From Chloroflexota bacterium (lineage in GTDB: Bacteria > Chloroflexota > UBA6077 > FW602-bin22 > JACPRP01), in the NCBI GenBank assembly GCA_016189905.1, contig JACPRP010000019.1, positions 7,171 to 71,170 on the forward strand: a DNA stretch of 64,000 nt. Reading direction: 5' to 3'. Under the pieces are notes generated by a model. That model saw nothing but the letters and a program-made list of their open reading frames with translations, did no database searches and had not been told where the DNA came from. Made by a program: the position numbers and the translations under genes. Positions 1 to 28,078 of this stretch are shown piece by piece (position 1 is the first letter of the stretch; every line of letters begins with the position of its first letter).

Positions 1-15
1 ACAGTAACTGGTCCG

Positions 16-657
16 TTGAAGATTCTCCTGGCAACGAACAATCCGGGGAAAGTGCGGGAGTATCGCGACCTCCTTTCGCGAAAGGTTTCGGGCAGGTCAG
101 CTCCCGCAGCCCCGCTTAACACGTCAATCACTTTGTTTACTCCGGCCGATCTCGGAATCGACATCTCCGTAGAGGAAACTGGGACGACCTTCGCGGAGAA
201 TGCCACCATCAAAGCCAGAGCCTTCGCCTCCGCCAGCGGTAGCTTCGCCCTCGCCGATGATTCAGGACTTGAAATCGACGCCCTTGGCGGTGAGCCCGGC
301 GTCCGATCGTCCCGCTATGCAGGCCCTACTGATGCCGACCGCATCAGAGCGGTGCTGGCCAAGCTCGGGGACCTGCCACTCGAGAAACGTACCGCTCGCT
401 TTCGGTGCGTCGTGGCCCTCGCCGGCCCAACCGGCCAACTCTGGACTAGCGAAGGCACTTGCGAAGGGCTCATCGCTTTCTCGCCACGAGGCCGAGGCGG
501 CTTCGGCTACGATCCCATTTTCTATCTGCCCTCACTCGGCCGCACGATGGCTCAGATTCCGCGGTACCTCAAGAACACTATTAGCCACCGTGCTCACGCC
601 CTTCAGGGCCTTCGTCCAATCATCGCCAGCCTCGCAACAACAACGCCAGACCCTTGA
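16..657 (+). CDS. rdgB: RdgB/HAM1-family non-canonical purine NTP pyrophosphatase
   Basis: 213-aa ORF with TTG start. The N-terminal KILLATNNPGKVRE and the C-terminal FGYDPIF and ISHRAHA motifs are typical of the Ham1/RdgB family. Confidence 0.9.
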   Translation: MKILLATNNPGKVREYRDLLSRKVSGRSAPAAPLNTSITLFTPADLGIDISVEETGTTFAENATIKARAFASASGSFALADDSGLEIDALGGEPGVRSSRYAGPTDADRIRAVLAKLGDLPLEKRTARFRCVVALAGPTGQLWTSEGTCEGLIAFSPRGRGGFGYDPIFYLPSLGRTMAQIPRYLKNTISHRAHALQGLRPIIASLATTTPDP

Positions 658-805
658 TCTTTAATTACGGAGCTTTTCACGAGCGTTCGTCGCTCGGTGC
701 TCTGCTGATGGCACGTTTGAAACCGTACCCAAGAACATTCGCTAATATTTGCTTCTACGTTAATGTCTCAATAGATGCTACCCTACCGTATAGCCGCACA
801 TCCGA

Positions 806-1131
<326 letters not shown>

Positions 1132-1283
1132 TTCCTCACTCGTTCCGTCGCACCCATCCACCCAAACAGCGCAACGGCCCTTCGGCGATCAATACGGCAC
1201 ATTCCCACACGATGCCGCTACACTTCATCCCCCAGTCCAGCGTTTCACCCAAAGGTTGGTGCATCCGTGCCCGGCGGGGGGCG

Positions 1284-1360
1284 CTATGAACCGGAACGCG
1301 ACGAACCGCGCCCCGATAAACTGTCGACGATCCAACGCTTTCGCTGAATGCTCTCAAGCG
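1284..1360 (+). repeat. REP-like ~75-bp dispersed repeat, copy A
   Basis: ATGAACCGGAACGCGACGAACCGCGCC...CCAACGCTTTCGC...ATGCTCT aligns at roughly 75% with 4116-4192 in the same orientation. It is not in a credible ORF. Confidence 0.7.
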
Positions 1361-1810
1361 CTGTCTCGCACACTGATCCCCCAACACTGTCAGCACCGCC
1401 TCACACCGGCTACACATCCTTCGCCCATCCATCATCCCTCGCCCGTTCTACCCCCTCATCTGGCGTCCTTGAAGCTAGCACTTCCCAGCACAAAACTCAT
1501 TCCGCGGCTAGCCGCATTCCTGGGCCTATCTCACATCAACCTCTCTGCATACGCCGCTCCGTGCGTCCCTAGTGCACAATCAGGCCACATTGGCGGGAAT
1601 GGCCCCGCCCATTCCTCCCGCTATACGGGATCCCACGCGCGTGACGCCTCACGTAAGGGGAATTTCATCCCGCCGAGCGAGAGAGCCACCGGCCTGATAG
1701 GCCACTAGGACATCCAGGCCTTCCAAGCCCGAGGCGTCTCTATATGGCCCAAAGCGACCCTCCAAGACAAGCGCGCTGTCTGTCATCCTGTCCCTGAAAC
1801 CGGTTCAGGC

Positions 1811-2362
1811 TTAACGCCAGGGCCACCAGCCACGCCTCGGTTCCTTCCGTCGCCCTGCACCACCCTCAGGACTCACATTCTCAAGCAACTCCCCCACCTT
1901 CGCCTCAAGCGCCTCCATGCGCGCCTCCAAACGCTCAATTCTCCGTCCCTCCAACTCCAGCAGATCCCTGGAGGCCTGTAGCGCCTTATCGGCATTCCCC
2001 ACCGCCGCCTTTAACGTCTCGATCATGTCCACCACTACATCAGGAGACAATACACCACTTGTCGCCTCTCTTGGTGCCTCAGCCGGCTTAGCCTCCGCCT
2101 TGCCACGCGCCTTTACTCCTGCCATCGCCAGCTTTAGCTCAGCCAGCGTCTGGTCATACGTCAGGCCCTGGCCAAGCAGCTCCTTCGCGCGACTCAACAC
2201 CAGCACGTCCCGACTCGAGTACAGCCGATGCCCCCCTACCCCTGCCCCGCTCGCCGCCCCGGAGAGTAACTCCCGGAACTTGGCCGAGTAGATCCTCAAT
2301 GTACTCGGCGCCAAATCAAGCCGTTTGCACACCTCAGCCGGCTTCAGCAGCTCTTCGCTCAT
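1811..2362 (-). CDS. MerR-type HTH DNA-binding protein with C-terminal coiled coil (RacA-like architecture)
   Basis: LKPAEVCKRLDLAPSTLRIYSAKF...HRLYSSRDVLVLSRAKELL is a MerR-family wHTH. The C-terminal RDLLELEGRRIERLEARMEALEAKVGELL is heptad-like. The likely start is ATG 2362 (MSEELL) behind GGAAGGGGG; the ORF extends to a GTG at 2392. Confidence 0.75.
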   Translation of the reverse strand: MSEELLKPAEVCKRLDLAPSTLRIYSAKFRELLSGAASGAGVGGHRLYSSRDVLVLSRAKELLGQGLTYDQTLAELKLAMAGVKARGKAEAKPAEAPREATSGVLSPDVVVDMIETLKAAVGNADKALQASRDLLELEGRRIERLEARMEALEAKVGELLENVSPEGGAGRRKEPRRGWWPWR

Positions 2363-2405
2363 CGCCAGACCCCCTTCCCCTGCCCCGTTCACCCTTTCTC
2401 ATAAT

Positions 2406-2532
2406 CGCCATGTCCCGCCATCCATAGCCAGCGTCCAGACTATCCGCCATGGCGTTTTCAGCAGCCGCCATCTGCCGCCACGCCCCGCTATCGACCGCCA
2501 TGCAGCGCCACTATATTACCACAATTCGCCAC
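2406..2532 (+). repeat. Helically phased CGCCA[TC] hexamer array directly upstream of the MerR-like gene
   Basis: CGCCAT or CGCCAC at 2406, 2416, 2445, 2466, 2476, 2496, 2506 and 2527, plus AGCCAG at 2426. All spacings are multiples of ~10 bp. Confidence 0.7.
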
Positions 2533-3549
2533 CACTTACAAGGACATGGCGTTTGTGGCGCTAGATATCTAATCAGCCGTCGGCGCCACCGCAAGGCCCT
2601 GACTCGCACTCGCACACTCACCAAACGCAGCGGGCCTCGCAAATGACAGGGTCCTGGCTCGCCGGGCTCTTCGCGTCCCCCAGTGGTCCCAGTGCCACCC
2701 ACATCTCCGTCGCACGAAGTCCCGACAGCGATAACGCATCGGGTGTAGGCGCCAGATGGCGTACGATCTCCCACAACTCCTATGAGAGAAGATCCATCAT
2801 CAAGGCCTGTGCGGCCGCAGAGTCCTTCGGAAGCCGCCGAAGGTCATTGGTGAGTGCCCGAGGGACGTGGGGCGCCGCCCGGACGGGATATTTACGTCGG
2901 CAGGAGCTGCGAGAACGATGCTCCCATCCTTCCCCAGGAAGAAGCGCTTATCCGGCGGGAAAGGGTGGCATAGAGCTCCCAGAAGGGGTGTCGCTCGTAC
3001 ACCACAGCGGTTTGCCAGTGATCGTCAATACTGTTGCATAGCTATTGCATATCACGTGTGTAGTGACGCTCCAGAGATCCAGAAAGGCCAGCTAGCTATG
3101 CTCCACTAGCCGCCAGGCCTGCATCTCTCGCGCGCGCGTTATCGATCCGGCACTGAGCATCGCTGACCCACGAAGCCCCCGCCTGGAAGAAATTCGGCGT
3201 ATCTGCGTCCTTCCACCGAGGTTAAGACCTTAGAAAACGCAGTATGGACCGCCTCAGGCGCCTCGCCAACCCCTAAACAGAGCTGGGGCTGGGCATAATA
3301 GTTATGTCGAATACGTCACACACCGCCATGTGCCCGCCATGGCGGTTAATTGGGGTCCTCTATTATGTCATGTATCCGTTATGTCTGGCCAGCTCTTGGG
3401 TATGGCAGCCTGGAGCGTGTGGATGGGGGTCTGGATGGGGGTCCGGAGACTTGCCGCAGCCTTTTCCAGTCCTTCATCCACTACTCTGAGCAATCGCAGC
3501 CGTGCTACAGCGCTTTGCGTCCGTGTTGACCAGTCAGTTCTCTGCTGAG

Positions 3550-3612
3550 GGCGACTGCCAGTCGCCCCTACTGCCAGCCCCTACAGCCAGTCCTTACACA
3601 GTCGCCCCTACA
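3550..3612. repeat. REP-like hairpin plus repeated CAGTCGCCCCTAC units
   Basis: Hairpin GGCGACT-GCC-AGTCGCC at 3550-3566. AGTCGCCCCTAC is repeated at 3560 and 3600, with degenerate copies between them. Confidence 0.6.
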
Positions 3613-4040
3613 CAGCCTAGATAACAGCTCAATCTTTTCGCAAAACGCTATAAGACCTGGCGCTCCCCCATGGTGTCAGCTTCCACCTCACCCTCCCCTC
3701 CCAGATCCTCCTCAATCTGCGCCGCGTCGCCACAAAGGCAGACACTGCCGACAGGGTCGCTCACACTGGTTGCCCAATCAGTGGGTAGGGAAAGGGACGA
3801 TACACAGGGCTACCGAGAGACCTGGAATATCACAAGATGCTGGTGATCAAAAGGTTAACCACGGTCGGTGGTGCAAGGCCCAGTCAACGTGGGGGCTTCT
3901 GGAGACACATCCAAGGGTGCTGCGCCTCGGCATGATCGGGTCCTTCAGAGAAAGACTTCGCTAATGAAGGGCTCTTTCCAGCGGGCGCGGGAATCGCCCT
4001 GGCGGCTCGTGTTTCCACGACTGTTAGAACACTGCCACCC

Positions 4041-4068
4041 CCGTGTCCCTCTACCCCGTGTCCCTCTA
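4041..4068. repeat. 14-bp tandem duplication CCGTGTCCCTCTAC x2
   Basis: Two exact adjacent copies, read directly from the sequence. Confidence 0.9.
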
Positions 4069-4115
4069 CAACGTTTTGCGCACAGATTGGCGTATTGATG
4101 CTCGCGAGTGGGATG

Positions 4116-4192
4116 CGATGAATCGGAACGCGATGAATTGCGCGCCTACGAATTGCCAACGCTCCAATGCCTTCGCAAAATGCTCTAGCGAG
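4116..4192 (+). repeat. REP-like ~75-bp dispersed repeat, copy B
   Basis: Aligns with 1284-1360 (ATGAATCGGAACGCGATGAATTGCGCGCC...CCAATGCCTTCGC...ATGCTCT). Confidence 0.7.
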
Positions 4193-4869
4193 CAGCACAG
4201 GGCTGGTTGGTGTCGCAAGCGTCTTCTTTGCCGCGAAGGCGCCCTCCCCTACCCTCTCAAGGCCTTATACAAAGATCCGGTCACACTTTGCCCGCTATAA
4301 GGGTTCTCGTACGCATCTAGGCAGCGACAGAGCGGCGGAGCAATCGGCGGTAGTAGACGAAGGAGTGTGAAAGCAAAATGGGTTGTTCACGGTGTCAATG
4401 GATGCGAAAGGGATAAACAGATGTGCGTGGCACCGAGGCCGGAGGCATTAGAACTGTTGTACATCTCCGGCCAGAGTTACCGTGAACCGAAACTCTCCCG
4501 TTCCGTTCTCAGCCTGATCCTCTCACTCAGGCTGACCTCTCAGGTTCGCATCTGCGTTCGGCGGGCAATTCGTATTGGTGCAAGGGCAATGTCTTGGCCA
4601 AAGGCGGTGAAATCCACCGACAGGCCTGTCAGTGCGCCCGTCAGGCCTGTCAGTCCGGCCGTAGGCGAAGCGCTGCTTGAGCGATGGCCAACTCTCGGCG
4701 CGTCATCTCTCGCAATCGGTACCGACGGCCATCTTGGCTATCGAGGCGTAAGGAAAGCTTCCGGTCCGTGGGCTTTCGAGGACGCCGGGACGGATGAGAC
4801 AGAAGGAGATGAAGACCGGCGTTGGCAGAGCGATCTTCCAGGGAGGTCAAAGCCGCGTCCGGATATGTA

Positions 4870-5260
4870 AGCTCATACAATAGTGCGGCTATACGGCAGT
4901 TATGATCTACTCACGTTCGTCTATACGTCAGTAGTACCGCACATACCGTGTGGCTCACCGGCGTACTAACGCACAGCCTTTATAGCTCACATCATCCATG
5001 TAATATATCACCTAGTAGTAATAGCGGTGGTACTATCTAACATGCTATCCATTGTTATATACTTCTGTGCGCCATAATATTATCCAGTTTATACGGCATT
5101 GCTACAAGACTGCTATGCTATGATGGTGCCATAGTGCTATGATGGTATGGTGGTATACTAATATGTGGTTGTGCTGCTATGGCGCTATGGCGCTATGTGT
5201 ACCAAGTTATATACTTGCCTACATCCACGCATACATACTGCCATATTGCAGCCGGCATAT
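4870..5260. other. AT-rich non-coding block with GCTATG(G) short repeats
   Basis: Visibly lower GC than the flanks. There are seven GCTATG copies in ~90 bp, including the 8-bp tandem GCTATGGC GCTATGGC GCTATGTG at 5174-5197 and GCTATGATGGT x2. No ORF here has a protein-like sequence. Confidence 0.7.
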
Positions 5261-5526
5261 TGCGAGCGTGCGGCCAACGACGAGAGAAACATCCGAAATG
5301 GATACTCCTTCTGTGGGCGGGGGACGTCGGGTTCTGGCGGGATAGTAGGTGGATGGCGGTCCGTCCGGAGAATGAGAAGAGCTGGACGACAGGAAGGGTA
5401 GAGAGGTTATTCGTGTTCTTTTTCTTTCGATGGATTTGGCAGGGCGAGGCCCGCAGAGTAGCTTGGCGGTGAGGTATGGTACGGCGCGCGACGCTTGATA
5501 GAGGGAATGCAGGTGAAGCTTTTTCG

Positions 5527-5871
5527 TCAGGGACTCTGCCGCAGGCCCTTCTTGATGCGGTGGATGAGATCTTCCTCTCGCCGGAGCGTCGTGAGATCGA
5601 TGGGGGCTTCCATCGCGATATCGATTAGCGCTCGAATGATAGCCGCCTTCCGAATGGCGCGGCCTCCTTTGCGACGTGCGTCCCGGCAACGGTCCTCAAG
5701 CCAGTCGATATGCCGCTCCTCAAGAAAAACTGCTGACTGGCGGGTCACCGCCTTCTCAGGCTCCTCCTCGCTGCGCAACTGCTCTCCTACCGTCTGGCGC
5801 ACCATCGTCTCTGGTGGCTTGTAGAAAACGGTCTTCCCCTCAGGAACCTGGATGCGCTTGGCCATTGTCAA
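5527..5871 (-). CDS. Small ribbon-helix-helix-like putative centromere-binding/partition partner of ParA
   Basis: 114-aa ORF overlapping the parA 3' end (operon-like). QSAVFLEERHIDWLEDRC...GRAIRKAAIIRALIDIA fits a strand-helix-helix (CopG/ParG-like) pattern. No ParB/Spo0J domain is present. Confidence 0.5.
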   Translation of the reverse strand: MTMAKRIQVPEGKTVFYKPPETMVRQTVGEQLRSEEEPEKAVTRQSAVFLEERHIDWLEDRCRDARRKGGRAIRKAAIIRALIDIAMEAPIDLTTLRREEDLIHRIKKGLRQSP

Positions 5872-6619
5872 TCTCCTTGGCTAGTTCTCGATAAGCTCGT
5901 GCGCCTTCGCTGTTGGATGCGTAGTGCAGGATGGACTTGCCCGTGATCGGGGTCTCCTTGAATCTGACGCTTTCTCTTATCACGATCTGGTAGACGTGGT
6001 ATTGCTGGCCCAGGGCCTCCCGCGTTTGTTCGAGAATTTCCTTAGCGTGAAGTGTCCGACTATCGAAGCGCGTGGGAAGAATGCCAGTGACCGTCAGGTC
6101 TGGATTCACTTCCTCTTGAATCTCACTGATGGTATCCAGCATCAGCCTGACGCCTAGCATCGTGTAGTAATCGCACGTCATAGGGATAAGCACGGTATGG
6201 GCCGCGGAAAGGCAATTGACGGTCAAGAGACCGAAAGAAGGAGGGCAATCAAGCAAAATGTAGTCATAGCTCGAAGCCACCGACTTCAAAGCGTTGCGCA
6301 GCTTGTCCTCGCGGCGATTGCTGTTCACAAGCTGTAACTCCGCCGCCGAAAGATGGATGTTTGCGGGAGCAAGATCGACGCACTCCTCGACATTGATGAC
6401 GATATCGGGCAGACGCAAACTGCCCAGGAGCACGTGGTAGATGGTCTTGTCCAGCAGATGCAGCGGCACGCCACAGCCCTCCGAAAGGCTGGCCTGCGGA
6501 TCGACGTCAACCAAAAGCACCCGTCTGCCCCGCTCTGCCAGAGCAGAACCCAAGGACCTGGTGGTGGTTGTCTTGCCCGATCCACCTTTCTGGTTGGCGA
6601 TTGCTATCACTCGCGCCAC
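5840..6619 (-). CDS. parA: ParA/Soj-family partition ATPase (deviant Walker A)
   Basis: VIAIANQKGGSGKTTT deviant Walker A and LLVDVDPQASL, 259 aa, GTG start. Confidence 0.9.
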   Translation of the reverse strand: MARVIAIANQKGGSGKTTTTRSLGSALAERGRRVLLVDVDPQASLSEGCGVPLHLLDKTIYHVLLGSLRLPDIVINVEECVDLAPANIHLSAAELQLVNSNRREDKLRNALKSVASSYDYILLDCPPSFGLLTVNCLSAAHTVLIPMTCDYYTMLGVRLMLDTISEIQEEVNPDLTVTGILPTRFDSRTLHAKEILEQTREALGQQYHVYQIVIRESVRFKETPITGKSILHYASNSEGARAYRELAKEIDNGQAHPGS

Positions 6620-6637
6620 GCCTGCGCCCCCGCCCCA

Positions 6638-6703
6638 TCACATATGTGACATTATAGTGTTGTAAGCCAGGCGCATTATAGATTGCGGTTTCGGGGTTGT
6701 CAA
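6638..6703 (-). promoter_or_regulatory. Perfect consensus sigma-70-type promoter for parA plus palindromic operator
   Basis: On the minus strand: TTGACA (6698-6703), a 17-nt spacer, then TATAAT (6675-6680). A second TATAAT lies at 6651-6656. The 12-bp perfect palindrome TCACATATGTGA (6638-6649) sits between the promoter and the GTG start. Confidence 0.7.
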
Positions 6704-6793
6704 GTAGCTTTCCGCCGATGCGGGTATCTGCTCAAGAGTAGGATGCGCAAAACTGGACACTGCAATGGCGACTGTGTTATCCTCTAATACGCT

Positions 6794-9646
6794 ATGGCAG
6801 AACAGATCTACGTCTCGATAGATATGGAAATGACGAGTGCCCGTCCCGAAAACCAGGAAATCCTGGAGATCGCGGCCGTGAAGTTCCGTGGCACAGAGGT
6901 GCTGGATAGCTGGTCTACGCTGGTCAACCCCCGCTGCTCGATACCTTATAGCATTCAGATGCTGACCGGCATCAAGCAAGAGGACGTCAACCGGGCCCCG
7001 GCGCTCGCCGAGGTGATCGGAGATTTCCTGAAGTTTGTGAAGAACTATCCTCTTATCGCGCATTCTGTGGCCGCCGACGTGACCTGCCTCGATCGCAAAG
7101 GCGTTCATCTCGATAATCAGCAGATCGACACTTTCGAGCTGGCGTGCATTTTGCTGCCTCATCTGGCCAGCTATAGTCTGGAATCTGTGGCCACCTACCT
7201 CAACGTCTCGTTTAGAAAAACGCATCGTGCGGCGGATGACGCGCTTACGCAGAAAGAGGTGCTTGTCGCCCTTGTGAGACGTGCCGAAGAGCTTGACCTA
7301 TCGATCGTGCAAGAGATCAATAGATTGGTTGCCCCGACGACGTGGCAGATGAAGGAGATCTTCCGCGAGATCGAGCGCCGCAAGTCGTTTTCAGCCTTTG
7401 GTGGCAGCTCCATTCGCCAGCAACTCGCGGCAAAGAGCGGCCTCGAGGTAGCGGCTCTGGACCTGGCATTTGTCGCAGAGGAACCTGAAGAACCGTTGGT
7501 TCCAGCGTCAAAGCGGCGCCCTATCGATAAACTGGCCTTGAAGTCTATGCTTGGTCCCGACGGACTTTTCTCTCAGAAATTCGATAGGTACGAGCACCGT
7601 CCACAACAAGTGCAGATGATGGAAGCCGTCGCCGACGCCTTCGACAATGGCGAGAACCTGATCGTCGAGGCCGGAACCGGGACCGGCAAATCCGTGGCAT
7701 ATCTCTTGCCCGCCGCGCATTTTGCGGTGCAAAACAGCGAAAGGGTGGTCGTTTCAACGAACACCATCAACCTTCAGGACCAGCTTTTTAATAAAGACAT
7801 CCCATCGCTCCAAAGCATTCTGCCGTTCGCTTTCAAGTCGGCACTGGTGAAAGGCAGAAGCAACTACCTGTGCCTAAGTAGATGGGCCGCTCTGCAGCGA
7901 CATCACGAGATCAAGCCTGAGGAAATCCAGACGCTGATCAAGATACTCATCTGGCTGCCCACCACGCAGACAGGCGACGTCGCCGAACTGAGCCGGCTAT
8001 CCGGCGATGAGGCGGGCGTTTGGAAAAGGATATCGGCCGCGAACGAAGGGTGTAACGGCAGCCAGTGCACACACTTCAGGAAAGGGACCTGCTTCCTTTA
8101 TCGAGCCCGTCGCAAGGCAGAAAGCTCGCATATCATCGTGGCAAACCACGCGCTCGTTCTCAGCGATCTGGCCTCCGATGGCGTCTTGCCCGATTATGAT
8201 TATCTGATCGTCGACGAGGCCCAACACCTGGAAGCCGAGGCCACCGAACAGCTCGGGTTTTCAGTAAGAGAAAGCGAGCTACTCGCCACCCTTAACGAAC
8301 TGGCCCGTCGCGGCGACGGTGACCGGGATCGACAGATCGGCCTTCTCCCGGATCTCAAGAATCACTTCCGGGGCAGTGAAGTTCCTGCCCGTGTGCAAAA
8401 GGACCTTGAAGCGTTGGCGGGCAAATTGGTGAACGAAGTCGAGGAAGCGCGAGGGGCGGCGACGTTGTTCTTCGATCGCCTCAACGATTTCCTTCTGCAG
8501 CACACGAGGGACAACAAGGGCTATGAAATCCGTCTGTTGCTCACGGGAGGAATACGACGCCAGCCCGCATGGGATGACATCGAGCTGACCCTCGAATCGC
8601 TTTCATCTCCTTTGAAGGCCATCAGCAATGGCCTCACCAGTTTACTCACGGTGTTGTCGGAGCTTGAAAGCTACAAGGTGCTCGACTACGACGCGCTGAT
8701 GGCAGATTTGACCAGACAGGCGCGGTTCCACGAAAGCGTTCTCGAACAAACGCAGGTCCTGGTCCTTAACCCACAGGCAGACGGAATCTACTGGATCTCG
8801 ATGGGGGCGCACCGCAACGATGTTGCATTGCATTCGGCGCCGCTGCACGTCGGCCAGGCATTGCAGGCTAAACTGTACTCGACCAAGGAATGTGTTGTCC
8901 TTACCTCGGCCACGCTGAGCACCGAGCGCAAGTTCGACTTCATCGCCGAGCGCCTCGGGTTCGCAGAGGCCAATCAAGTTATCGTCGATTCCCCATTCGA
9001 TTACTCGCGCTCTACGCTGGTCTATGTGCCCACCGATATGCCTGAGCCGGAGAAGCCCTACTACCAGAAGCACCTGCAGCAAAGCATCCTGGATATTTGC
9101 GGCGCCACAGGTGGACGCGCGCTCGTGCTTTTTACCTCACACAGCCAGCTGCGCTTGACCTGGCAGGCCATTCGCCACCCCTTGCAGGACCAAGGCATCC
9201 TTGTTCTCGGGCACAACGTGGACGGCATGCCCCGCAGGCAACTGCTTCAAACGTTCAAGACTAATCCGAAGACCGTGTTACTGGGAGCGGCGAGCTTCTG
9301 GGAAGGGATCGACGTCGTCGGCGACGCGCTCAGCGTGTTAATCATTACGCGCCTTCCCTTCGCGGTGCCGTCCGACCCGGTGTTTGCGGCGCGTAGCGGG
9401 CAGTTCCGTGATCCCTTCCGCGAGTTTAGTCTGCCGCAGACCATTCTGCGCTTCAAGCAAGGTTTTGGCCGACTCATCCGCAGCCAGAGTGATCGAGGCG
9501 TGGTCGTGATCCTCGACAGCCGTATTTCATCCAAATCCTATGGAAAAGCCTTCATCTCCTCCTTGCCGTCCTGCAGCTTCCGATATGGTCCCCTGCACCA
9601 GGCCGCCCATCAGACTATCGATTGGTTATCGCCTGTTTCCAGATAG
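6794..9646 (+). CDS. dinG: DinG-family ATP-dependent DNA helicase with N-terminal DEDDh 3'-5' exonuclease domain
   Basis: The N-terminus has the DMEMT (Exo I) and HRAADDA (Exo III) motifs. Helicase motifs are AGTGTGKS (Walker A) and DEAQH. A Cys cluster (YLCLS, GCNGSQC, GTCF) suggests an Fe-S domain. Confidence 0.85.
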   Translation: MAEQIYVSIDMEMTSARPENQEILEIAAVKFRGTEVLDSWSTLVNPRCSIPYSIQMLTGIKQEDVNRAPALAEVIGDFLKFVKNYPLIAHSVAADVTCLDRKGVHLDNQQIDTFELACILLPHLASYSLESVATYLNVSFRKTHRAADDALTQKEVLVALVRRAEELDLSIVQEINRLVAPTTWQMKEIFREIERRKSFSAFGGSSIRQQLAAKSGLEVAALDLAFVAEEPEEPLVPASKRRPIDKLALKSMLGPDGLFSQKFDRYEHRPQQVQMMEAVADAFDNGENLIVEAGTGTGKSVAYLLPAAHFAVQNSERVVVSTNTINLQDQLFNKDIPSLQSILPFAFKSALVKGRSNYLCLSRWAALQRHHEIKPEEIQTLIKILIWLPTTQTGDVAELSRLSGDEAGVWKRISAANEGCNGSQCTHFRKGTCFLYRARRKAESSHIIVANHALVLSDLASDGVLPDYDYLIVDEAQHLEAEATEQLGFSVRESELLATLNELARRGDGDRDRQIGLLPDLKNHFRGSEVPARVQKDLEALAGKLVNEVEEARGAATLFFDRLNDFLLQHTRDNKGYEIRLLLTGGIRRQPAWDDIELTLESLSSPLKAISNGLTSLLTVLSELESYKVLDYDALMADLTRQARFHESVLEQTQVLVLNPQADGIYWISMGAHRNDVALHSAPLHVGQALQAKLYSTKECVVLTSATLSTERKFDFIAERLGFAEANQVIVDSPFDYSRSTLVYVPTDMPEPEKPYYQKHLQQSILDICGATGGRALVLFTSHSQLRLTWQAIRHPLQDQGILVLGHNVDGMPRRQLLQTFKTNPKTVLLGAASFWEGIDVVGDALSVLIITRLPFAVPSDPVFAARSGQFRDPFREFSLPQTILRFKQGFGRLIRSQSDRGVVVILDSRISSKSYGKAFISSLPSCSFRYGPLHQAAHQTIDWLSPVSR

Positions 9647-26608: not shown

Positions 26609-28078
26609 CTACGAGATTGTCGGAAGATGAACGACGAACTCCGTGCCGTTCAAGGATTCGCTTCTGGCCTCGACAGACCCGCCGTGAGCCTGAACGATTT
26701 CCTTGACTATGGAGAGACCTAGGCCGGTCCCCGCCGACGATCTAGCGCGCGACTTATCGACCTGATAGAACCGCTCGAACACCTTGTCGAGCTCCTCACT
26801 CGGGATTCTCGAGCCCGTATTGTGCACCGCGATGCAAGCCAGCGAATGACGGTCGTCGCCCAAATCAGCGCTTCGTCTCGCTGGCGCCACCGCTCCCGTT
26901 ATTGTGATCGCACCACCGCCGGGCGTATGCTTCAGGGCATTATCGAGCAGGTTGATGAAAACCTGCTCGAGCTTATGCGCGTCGCCCCGGATCAACGGAA
27001 GGCCAGACACCTGGACGCCAATCGAGATATTCGCTTGCCTAGCCTGAATGTCAACCTTACCCACGCACGCCGCTACGAGAGATTCCAGATCGACTGGAAG
27101 CTTCTCCATCGGAATCTGACCAGATTCAATCTTGGATAGATAGAGCAGGTCGTCCACTAGCCGGCGCATCCGCTCCGTCTCCTCGTTGATGATCCGCCCG
27201 GCGTCGGCGTATCCACTTGCATCCTGAATGGCGCCATCGACCATCGCTTGCGAAAAGCCTTGAATCGACGTCAGTGGTGTCTTGAGCTCGTGCGAGACAT
27301 TGGCCAGGAAATCCCGCAAGGTTCGGTGTGAAGACTTCACCTGCGCCGCCATCGCGTTGAAGGCCATCGCCATCCGGCCGATCTCGTCGCCACTCTTGAC
27401 CGTGATCGACTGATCGTAGTTACCTCTGGCCATCTCCTCCGACGCCTTCGTGACCGCCGAGATCGGCTGTGAGATGGAACGAGAGAGCAATACCGCGAGC
27501 GTGATCGAGGCAATCAAAGAGATTAAGGCCGCGAGCGAAAGGTTCGGCGCCAACTCCAGCCAGGACGAGGCAACGCTTTGCTGAGGAACAGCCAGCGCCA
27601 CCGTGTACGTCGGCGCACGGCTGAAGAAGCGCTCGCCGAAAGGGGTCGTCGGTCTCACACGCGTGACGACTAGGAAGAGGTTCTCGCTGCCATCATAGGA
27701 GAGAGAATAAGCTAGGCGGCCCGCGGTTGGCGGATTACTCGGCAAGATAACTCGCTGCCCCCGCAATTCGCCCTGAGAGTCCTCCGCGACAATGCCCTCG
27801 GGATCGAGCAGCAGTATGCGGACGTTCAGATCCTTCGTCTGGTCCTGCAAAAAGAGGCCGATTTGCTCTGGCGAGGCTCCGGCTCGCTCCAGCAGTTGCG
27901 CCTGATACGACATCGGGACGGCAATATCTTCCAACTGCCTCAGCTTGAGCTGTGTCTGATAGCCACGCAGCAAGAAGACGAAAGCCGCGCTCGCCAGAAG
28001 CAGACTGAGCAAAATAACCGACACAAAGGCGGCGATCAGCTTCGATCGTAGATCGGAAAACATGCCGACACCTTTCAC
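26609..28078 (-). CDS. Sensor histidine kinase (TM-sensor-HAMP-HisKA-HATPase)
   Basis: H-box SHELKTPLTSIQG, N-box NLLDNALKHT, G-box GTGLGLSIV. Confidence 0.9.
   Translation of the reverse strand: MKGVGMFSDLRSKLIAAFVSVILLSLLLASAAFVFLLRGYQTQLKLRQLEDIAVPMSYQAQLLERAGASPEQIGLFLQDQTKDLNVRILLLDPEGIVAEDSQGELRGQRVILPSNPPTAGRLAYSLSYDGSENLFLVVTRVRPTTPFGERFFSRAPTYTVALAVPQQSVASSWLELAPNLSLAALISLIASITLAVLLSRSISQPISAVTKASEEMARGNYDQSITVKSGDEIGRMAMAFNAMAAQVKSSHRTLRDFLANVSHELKTPLTSIQGFSQAMVDGAIQDASGYADAGRIINEETERMRRLVDDLLYLSKIESGQIPMEKLPVDLESLVAACVGKVDIQARQANISIGVQVSGLPLIRGDAHKLEQVFINLLDNALKHTPGGGAITITGAVAPARRSADLGDDRHSLACIAVHNTGSRIPSEELDKVFERFYQVDKSRARSSAGTGLGLSIVKEIVQAHGGSVEARSESLNGTEFVVHLPTIS

Follow-up and report, generated by a model that had tools for sequence, protein, structure and literature searches.

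A helically phased array of direct repeats on the predicted promoter of a MerR-type gene in Chloroflexota

Described MerR-type DNA binders and the present locus

RacA of B. subtilis and RicO of S. aureus recognise specific sequences that cluster near the origin, and RicO anchors origin-proximal sites to the membrane (for RicO, see bioRxiv 10.64898/2026.03.06.710092). The amphipathic tail of RocS of S. pneumoniae needs oligomerisation for membrane binding (PMC11500499), and the tail of TubY binds the membrane only when the protein is oligomerised (PMC7762940). The locus described here is contained in a 64,000-nt stretch of DNA (contig JACPRP010000019.1, positions 7,171–71,170; hereafter the window) that originates from a Chloroflexi metagenome-assembled genome (MAG). 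It comprises a minus-strand gene for a MerR-type protein of 183 amino acids (1811–2362; identified by Pfam, homologs and AlphaFold2) and, on the strand of this gene, a helically phased array of nine short boxes (2406–2532; identified by pattern search, phase statistics and cross-locus comparison). In the reading that we prefer, with a probability of about 0.6, the array is a cooperative platform that would load the adjacent MerR-type protein at one box per helical turn and would serve autoregulation and possibly the tethering of DNA to the membrane.

The MerR-type protein of the window is like RacA, RocS and RicO in its combination of a MerR-type winged helix, a flexible linker and a coiled coil (here predicted), and RocS and RicO have a MinD-like C-terminal amphipathic helix, which the sequence pattern also predicts for most relatives of the window protein. 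However, RacA, RocS and RicO come from Firmicutes, and the species with RocS and RicO are devoid of ParA, whereas the window protein belongs to a Chloroflexota-specific family and is encoded beside ParA and ParX, a name coined here for the 114-amino-acid partner of ParA. The binding sites differ as well: ram is a 14-bp palindrome and ricS a non-repeated 18-bp motif, scattered over hundreds of kilobases, whereas the boxes of the window are phased at 10 bp and lie over the predicted promoter of the protein's own gene. TubY, which belongs to the type III TubZRC plasmid partition system, is built along the lines of the window protein and its relatives: a MerR-like helix-turn-helix is followed by a coiled coil for oligomerisation and by an amphipathic tail. 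Its gene is adjacent to but outside the partition operon, and TubY is both a third component of the system and a transcription factor. TubY differs in its partners (a tubulin-like GTPase and TubR), in its lysine-rich tail, and in binding near tubC instead of at a phased array on its own promoter. The pSK1 Par protein of S. aureus, a single-protein partition system, shares this build and has a MinD-like C-terminal helix, but is unlike the window protein in being plasmid-borne, in containing DUF536/RocS-like_C, a domain with three conserved glutamines that RocS has too, and in having no ParA partner; in work by Chan et al. from 2022, its repeats are said to lie upstream of par itself. Membership of the window protein in the RacA, RocS, RicO, pSK1 Par or TubY families is not established.

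With regard to the DNA element, parallels are provided by BldC of Streptomyces and Gp36 of mycobacteriophage D29. On its direct repeats, which vary in number, BldC assembles cooperatively into head-to-tail multimers that protect tracts spaced by one helical turn (PMC5859096), while D29 Gp36 is a MerR-like repressor of downstream genes that recognises GC-rich direct repeats 21 bp apart (PMC12266134). Both resemble the system proposed here in that a MerR-like winged helix binds direct repeats, and the array of the window has the BldC-like combination of direct orientation, one repeat per helical turn and variable repeat number. On the other hand, BldC and Gp36 are small proteins that consist of the DNA-binding domain only, with neither coiled coil nor membrane tail, whereas the window protein carries a linker, a helix and a tail within its 183 amino acids. 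BldC and Gp36 use two to four repeats, compared with 9–11 in the present case, and the AT-rich box of BldC (AATT-N4-C) is unlike the window box, (G/C)RT(G/A)GCG(G). Classical MerR regulators differ in both operator and protein: their palindromic operator is placed in a promoter spacer of 19–20 bp, whereas the predicted spacer of the window is 17 bp long and holds a single box, with the array located downstream of the −10 element; and their coiled coil is fused to the DNA-binding domain and followed by an effector-binding C-terminus, whereas here a disordered linker precedes the helix.

Short phased iterons that extend over a promoter, are coated cooperatively, and serve autoregulation as well as segregation are found in the ParR–parC systems of R1 and pSK41 and in the ParG/omega centromeres. 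A preliminary description of the array, made from the sequence alone, had likened it to ParR/ParG-type centromeres and to plasmid iterons. The first likeness appears unlikely. ParR/ParG arrays are situated at the promoter of the par operon itself and are bound by ribbon-helix-helix proteins, whereas here it is the predicted MerR-type promoter that carries the array, the 3' end of the par operon is ~3 kb away, and the parA promoter is free of the TRGCG core of the box. The second likeness did not hold either: plasmid replication iterons are 17–22 bp long and lie beside a rep gene, whereas here the core measures 6–8 bp, the period is 10 bp, a rep gene is missing, and the context is chromosomal, with FtsH, TilS, LepA and SecD encoded nearby. 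In addition, a search of a plasmid collection returned neither a homolog of the MerR-type protein nor DNA resembling the array.

The phased array and its conservation

Exact copies of CGCCAY were found on the plus strand at positions 2406, 2416, 2445, 2466, 2476, 2496, 2506 and 2527 (n = 8), in agreement with the preliminary description, which had placed all eight at multiples of ~10 bp. That description had counted a degenerate ninth copy at 2426. The total of nine stands, but AGCCAG at 2426 is a weak candidate, and a better one, CGCTAT at 2486, had been missed; orthologous arrays often contain its reverse complement, ATAGCG. The resulting spacings are 10, 29, 21, 10, 10, 10, 10 and 21 bp. 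In the direction of the MerR-type gene, the boxes form direct repeats of the consensus (G/C)-R-T-(G/A)-G-C-G-(G/A). Their phasing is pronounced, with a circular statistic of R = 0.96 at a period of 10.0–10.1 bp, a value equalled in none of 20,000 random placements of nine sites and in 0.0001 of the placements of eight sites. Eight CGCCAY copies are packed into 127 bp of the array, compared with 81 on the plus strand of the entire 64 kb. The array is also the longest phased same-strand chain of the window (10 sites, if a loose match at 2559 is included), while the longest chain in Markov simulations of the window (n = 200) had three sites. The only other phased CGCCAY chain, formed by copies at 27347, 27368 and 27388 (27347–27393; spacings of 21 and 20 bp), was rejected as a second array, since chance suffices to produce it: 27 of the 200 simulations gave a chain of three.

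The compositional skew of the region and the other short tandems that Tandem Repeats Finder gives nearby would favour chance clustering in G/C-skewed DNA, or a functionless decayed coding or tandem repeat, as the source of the boxes. Such a source is nevertheless extremely improbable. When the null model retained the local, G/C-skewed composition, 12 TRGCG cores were observed at the array against 1.8 expected, and a 10-site chain was reached in 0 of 2,000 simulations, so that neither the observed count nor the phasing was ever attained; furthermore, orthologous positions carry the array again, with other spacers. The decayed coding repeat, an alternative already raised in the preliminary description, is excluded, because a period of 10/11 bp is incompatible with codons, the spacers drift, and tblastx of the region against the orthologous regions revealed conserved coding only in the MerR-type gene.

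The predicted promoter of the MerR-type gene (2513–2541, minus strand) is composed of a −35 hexamer TTGTAA (2536–2541), a 17-bp spacer and an extended −10 element TGgTAATAT (2513–2521). The latter conforms to the pattern TGnTAnnAT, reads TGGTAATAT in the window, and is located upstream of the boxes. Counted from the end of the −10 hexamer, boxes begin at +2, 12, 22, 32, 42, 63, 92 and 102, and one more is found at −19; this is the box at 2527, which falls in the predicted promoter spacer, while the remaining boxes of the array are downstream of the predicted −10. Because the boxes are placed from +2 to +102, the array would cover the predicted transcription start and about two thirds of the ~145-nt leader. 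As to the start of the gene, homologs begin with MSEELLKPAEV, which sets it at the ATG at 2362 and not at the GTG at 2392, where the longest open reading frame (ORF; 1811–2392, minus strand; matching Pfam MerR_1) begins. The array therefore ends 44 nt upstream of the gene, and the distance of 14 nt given in the preliminary description is correct for the GTG but not for the actual start. Two boxes of opposite orientation, CGCCAT (2546–2551) and CGCCAC (2555–2560), are found directly upstream of the predicted −35 hexamer (2546–2560, minus strand), and a 16-nt inverted repeat (2400–2415/2542–2557) is made up of the first array unit and these opposite-orientation boxes. The array box at 2445 represents one half of the palindrome CGCCATGGCG (2445–2454).

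For the assessment of conservation, the DNA around eleven relatives of the MerR-type gene (designated by L numbers) was compared with the window, giving 12 loci, to which the more distant locus L008 was added. A phased array precedes the orthologous gene in 10 of the 12 Chloroflexota loci, the window included, with spacers between the boxes that are unrelated and with MerR-type proteins that share only about 40–51% identity with that of the window. TRGCG arrays with a best period of 9.9–10.3 bp were found in L001, L003, L006 and L009. Locus L012 carries a phased chain of seven GTGGCG boxes, and shorter or looser sets of three to four boxes are present in L013, L015, L140 and L141, the last of which has three boxes, spaced 11 and 10 bp, right before the start codon. 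The phased chains comprise 3 to 10 boxes per locus in a single orientation (with a period of 9.9–10.3 bp in five loci), the number of boxes differs among lineages from 0–3 up to about 11, and all ten array-bearing loci are enriched in TRGCG compared with composition-matched simulations. When the 4.9-kb stretch between ParX and Ham1 was compared with the orthologous regions by BLAST, only the N-terminal domain of the MerR-type protein and an array block (2459–2511) were recovered.

The position of the array relative to the promoter is conserved as well. A pattern search detected TGnTAnnAT at the matching place in L001, L003, L006 and L009, while in L012, L013 and L015 a −10-like hexamer was chosen by eye. 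Box offsets from the −10 element are 2, 13, 23 ... 63 in L009, −1, 11 ... 61, 81, 92, 102 in L003 and 12 ... 93 in L001, so that the register in these three loci is like that of the window. Thus, box, orientation and 10-bp phase are conserved and spacers are not, which supports the view, put forward in the preliminary description, that helically phased boxes of this kind are typical of a cooperative, filament-forming DNA binder.

Genome and metagenome scans with a pattern from a four-sequence alignment returned one locus each, L008 and L009. The MerR-type protein of L008 is a distant relative (34% identity), and its gene is situated directly downstream of an unannotated ORF and lacks an array. 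A scan of viral contigs for four TGGCG boxes at 10-bp spacing was uninformative, because the more than 120 matches were heterogeneous and none encoded a relative of the MerR-type protein. Co-variation of box variants with residues of the recognition helix (I/L/V in STLRxYS) was seen by eye only, is confounded by phylogeny, and was set aside. In L003, L010, L011 and L015, the contig already ends ~160–970 bp upstream of the MerR-type gene, an indication that assembly of the long noncoding region is difficult owing to repeats, variability or uneven coverage.

Most of the boxes, lying downstream of the predicted −10, would be transcribed, and the repeats might thus act in the mRNA leader as AUGGCG elements for an RNA-binding protein, as a regulatory structure or as upstream starts. 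This is very unlikely. Folding of the predicted leader gave no excess of structure over shuffled sequences (z = +0.16), and a scan of positions 1–8000 against Rfam identified no known RNA apart from one spurious sub-threshold microRNA match. The conserved core is TRGCG and not AUG, with CTGGCG, GTGGCG and ATAGCG as common variants, and boxes are also found in the promoter spacer, upstream of the −35 hexamer, and as DNA palindromes. Moreover, the phase of 10–10.5 bp is the pitch of B-DNA.

The MerR-type protein, ParA and ParX

The likeliest binder of the array is the adjacent MerR-type winged-helix protein. Pfam MerR_1 was detected in 20 of 20 members of its family. The AlphaFold2 model (mean predicted local distance difference test score, pLDDT, of 83) shows a winged helix at residues 1–81, a disordered linker at 84–100 (pLDDT below 50), a long single helix at 107–163 and an unstructured tail; profile matches of the long-helix region in PDB were exclusively coiled coils. 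According to the Foldseek search against PDB, ranked by TM-score on the target, the DNA-binding domain of RacA is the best local match (5i44; TM of 0.81–0.84 and root-mean-square deviation of 1.6–1.7 Å over 66–67 residues, with weak Foldseek E-values of ~3e-3 at best), followed by GlnR/TnrA and BldC, while classical MerR proteins superposed poorly over their length.

The family is small (20 clusters at 90% identity), and a profile search of 1.84 billion representative proteins yielded 366 relatives at E ≤ 1e-10. Among the relatives, the C-terminus is mostly xGFWxRLFGG, as exemplified by KKGLWSRLFGG, RGFWQRLFGG and SAGFLARLFGG. These tails mirror the KKGFLKRLFGG of the C-terminus of E. coli MinD (EEEKKGFLKRLFGG; translated from minD of MG1655), and the motif was present in 47 (strict pattern) to 87 (loose pattern) of 166 relatives compared with 0 to 13 in control windows. 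A calculation of hydrophobic moments did not discriminate the tails, and the argument from the tail therefore rests on the sequence pattern.

The par genes, parA (5840–6619) and the gene for ParX (5527–5871), form the context of the MerR-type gene on the same strand (5527–6619, minus strand). The gene order ParA, ParX, 1.8–3.3 kb of noncoding DNA, MerR-type gene, noncoding DNA and Ham1 is common to the window, L001, L009 and L012. ParA, ParX and the MerR-type gene occur together in these four loci and in L138, L140 and L141, and ParA/ParX adjoin the MerR-type gene in all sufficiently long loci (seven including the window) with the exception of the rearranged L139. Four loci were reached from distant relatives of ParX, and in three of them a MerR_1 gene again directly follows parA–parX (L139 being the exception); the gene trio is thus conserved well past the clade with long arrays.

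The ParX family (181 matches, every stated source being a Chloroflexi or Chloroflexota MAG) is unannotated and far larger than the array-bearing clade. Its members have a conserved, basic N-terminal peptide, MAKRASVPEGKxLFF, followed by a variable linker and the conserved core TRQSAIFLEERHIDWLEDRCREARRxGGRAIRKAAIIRALLDVAME. The core follows a strand-helix-helix-like pattern, an extended segment and two helices, that is compatible with a ribbon-helix-helix fold. The preliminary description had counted a protein of this fold among the possible binders, but assignment of ParX to it was not confirmed, as Pfam, the PDB sequence search and Foldseek all gave no match. ParX probably represents a ParA adaptor of a new type.

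Short-repeat arrays are often the target of small partition proteins. The array could accordingly be a centromere of the ParA system bound by ParX, in the manner of ParR/ParG, with the MerR-type gene merely adjacent; the presence of ParA and ParX in every array locus that extends far enough, together with the basic N-terminal peptide and strand-helix-helix-like pattern of ParX, would agree with this. We regard such an arrangement as unlikely. The array is 3 kb away from the par operon and keeps a constant register with the predicted promoter of the MerR-type gene, whereas the usual site of par autoregulation carries other conserved sequence. The parA promoter is a near-consensus TTGACA-17-TATAAT (6638–6704, minus strand, with its leader), and the leader contains conserved ACAAC/TATAAT-type repeats, in the window including the palindrome TCACATATGTGA (6638–6649), that are recognisably similar in L001, L012 and L139 and are likely the operator of the par operon; no TRGCG box was found in this promoter and leader. 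In addition, the ParX family reaches much further than the array, L138 has ParA and ParX but no promoter-proximal array, and the ribbon-helix-helix fold of ParX is unconfirmed.

The gene-poor region and the proposed role of the array

The preliminary description had also mentioned further copies of the box, and these do exist: a pair at 3324 and 3335, a copy at 938–943, and copies in a period-8 tandem at 5174–5197. The pair belongs to a second box-bearing element (3299–3388, minus strand), which consists of the palindrome CCGCCATGGCGG (3333–3345), the CGCCAT at 3324, 11 bp from the box within the palindrome at 3335, and three GACATAA boxes on the minus strand (3302–3308, 3363–3369 and 3379–3385). 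Its layout is clear in eight further loci (L001, L006, L009, L012, L013, L015, L138 and L140) and can be given as GWCATAA-N9-GWCATAA, ~20–28 bp, a TRGCG/CGCYA pair, ~9–14 bp and KACATAA. A sigma-70-like site, TGGCCA-18-CATAAT (3391–3362, minus strand), overlaps the element, and a terminator-like site (3252–3239) is found on the strand of this promoter-like site. Candidate functions of the element are those of a second operator, a centromere-like site or a small transcript. A relation of the GACATAA boxes to the ACAAC/CATAAC repeats of the parA leader was considered and dropped, as the resemblance is too loose. The tandem at 5174–5197 (GCTATGGC, 2.8 copies, period of 8; no strand assigned) holds two boxes 8 bp apart that are not helically phased and lies in an AT-richer zone; nothing corresponding was seen when the orthologous regions of L001 and L012 were read, and its relevance is uncertain.

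All of these elements are situated in a gene-poor stretch of 4.9 kb (660–5520) with a single conserved gene, in which no further conserved coding or noncoding block was found. Strand asymmetry is strong, with a GC skew of −0.19 to −0.35 over positions 1–3000, and the orthologous spacers between the MerR-type gene and Ham1 likewise have G > C on the MerR strand. AT-richer zones at ~760–1130 and 4870–5260 are partly inverted copies of each other (e.g., 783–799/4883–4899). A direct repeat of ~118 nt (1238–1354/4069–4186; 71–75% identical, core ATGAAYCGGAACGCGAYGAA) occurs nowhere else in the window, and short tandems with periods of 12, 13, 15, 18 and 21 are located at 3420–3447, 3554–3598, 4039–4069, 4508–4542 and 4617–4666. 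Four identical DnaA-box-like nonamers ATATCCACA in one orientation (902, 998, 1044 and 1092) form a cluster at 902–1128 that ends in a (CA)16 microsatellite (1097–1128) and is possibly part of a replication origin; in related loci, the spacer between the MerR-type gene and Ham1 contains one to three TGTGGNTAT boxes or none.

The low gene content, the four same-orientation ATATCCACA boxes at 902–1100, the strong skew and the AT-richer flanks would suit an array that lies within a replication-origin region and is bound by a factor encoded elsewhere, e.g., a nucleoid-associated or origin-related protein. This is quite improbable, however, as the array box is unlike the DnaA box, the array stays in a fixed register with a single gene's −10 element, several orthologous loci with the array have weak DnaA-like boxes or none, and no dnaA was found among the ORFs checked.

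Under the preferred reading, in which the adjacent MerR-type protein is the binder, many copies of this protein would assemble side by side on the array, with one winged helix per box and per turn, all on the same DNA face and oriented alike, while coiled-coil oligomers with long linkers could span neighbouring boxes. Because the boxes begin 2 bp past the predicted −10 and run ~100 bp into the leader, such a coat would block initiation or early elongation, and the MerR-type gene would be autoregulated. The array and the element at 3299–3388 may also act as a nucleation or centromere-like site, a role suggested by the tether-like architecture of the protein and by the ParA/ParX neighbourhood. 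By analogy with RocS and TubY, whose tails bind the membrane only in the oligomerised state, the array could act as a tether: ten or more weak membrane-binding tails clustered at it could hold the region at the membrane. What the analysis shows is the array with its phase and conservation, its placement relative to a conserved −10-like element, the build of the protein and the genes around it; the binder, its cooperativity, repression and tethering are inferred.

Several points weigh against this reading. The organism is an uncultured MAG, and binding of the array by the MerR-type protein is a prediction, as are the promoter and the transcription start, a simple consensus promoter scan having given no call at 2513–2541. 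The profile of the N-terminal domain had no significant match in PDB (E = 1.1 for RacA and 0.04–0.6 for the best members of the MerR family), and Pfam gave no match to DUF536/RocS-like_C (PF04394) for any of the 20 family members at E-values of up to 1; the resemblance to known anchors is one of architecture, and homology is not demonstrated. The basic and aromatic tail of the window protein, RRGWWPWR, is shortened and lacks LFGG, as does that of the closest relative (RRGWWPR), which makes membrane binding less certain in the window genome. No promoter-proximal array was found in L010 and L138 (two of the 12 loci), and the array is therefore not obligatory. ParX is present with the array in every locus long enough, so that co-occurrence cannot separate the two candidate binders. 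Finally, proximity of the locus to the origin is only suggested, by the DnaA-box-like cluster at 902–1100.

A further-reaching proposal is that ParA, ParX and a RicO/RocS-like MerR protein constitute a three-part segregation module of Chloroflexota, in which the array and the element at 3299–3388 would be a new kind of centromere that loads at least 10 winged helices on one DNA face, provides weak amphipathic tails with the multivalency they require, holds the region at the membrane and sets the level of its own MerR-type protein. This is put forward tentatively, as a possibility that we hold to be rather doubtful.

The MerR-type tethers described to date (RacA, RocS, RicO, pSK1 Par and TubY) come from Firmicutes and their plasmids, and the distribution of such tethers beyond Firmicutes is left open in the RicO preprint (bioRxiv 10.64898/2026.03.06.710092). 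The present locus suggests that Chloroflexota possess a family of equivalent architecture, in which gene order ties the MerR-type gene to ParA and an unannotated partner. Its cis-element is unusually explicit, with a conserved one-box-per-turn array on the predicted promoter of the MerR-type gene, and the experimental handle is small: two small proteins and a DNA fragment of 220 bp. The questions touched are how proteins of this kind recognise DNA, whether membrane attachment is driven by multivalent arrays, and by what means ParA systems whose partner is not ParB locate their centromeres. If the array is only an autoregulatory operator, it would still be a clear case of BldC-like direct-repeat binding by a MerR relative that bears a coiled coil. 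If the three-part module is real, the MerR-type protein would extend anchors of this sort beyond Firmicutes for the first time and, also for the first time, link one to a ParA system.

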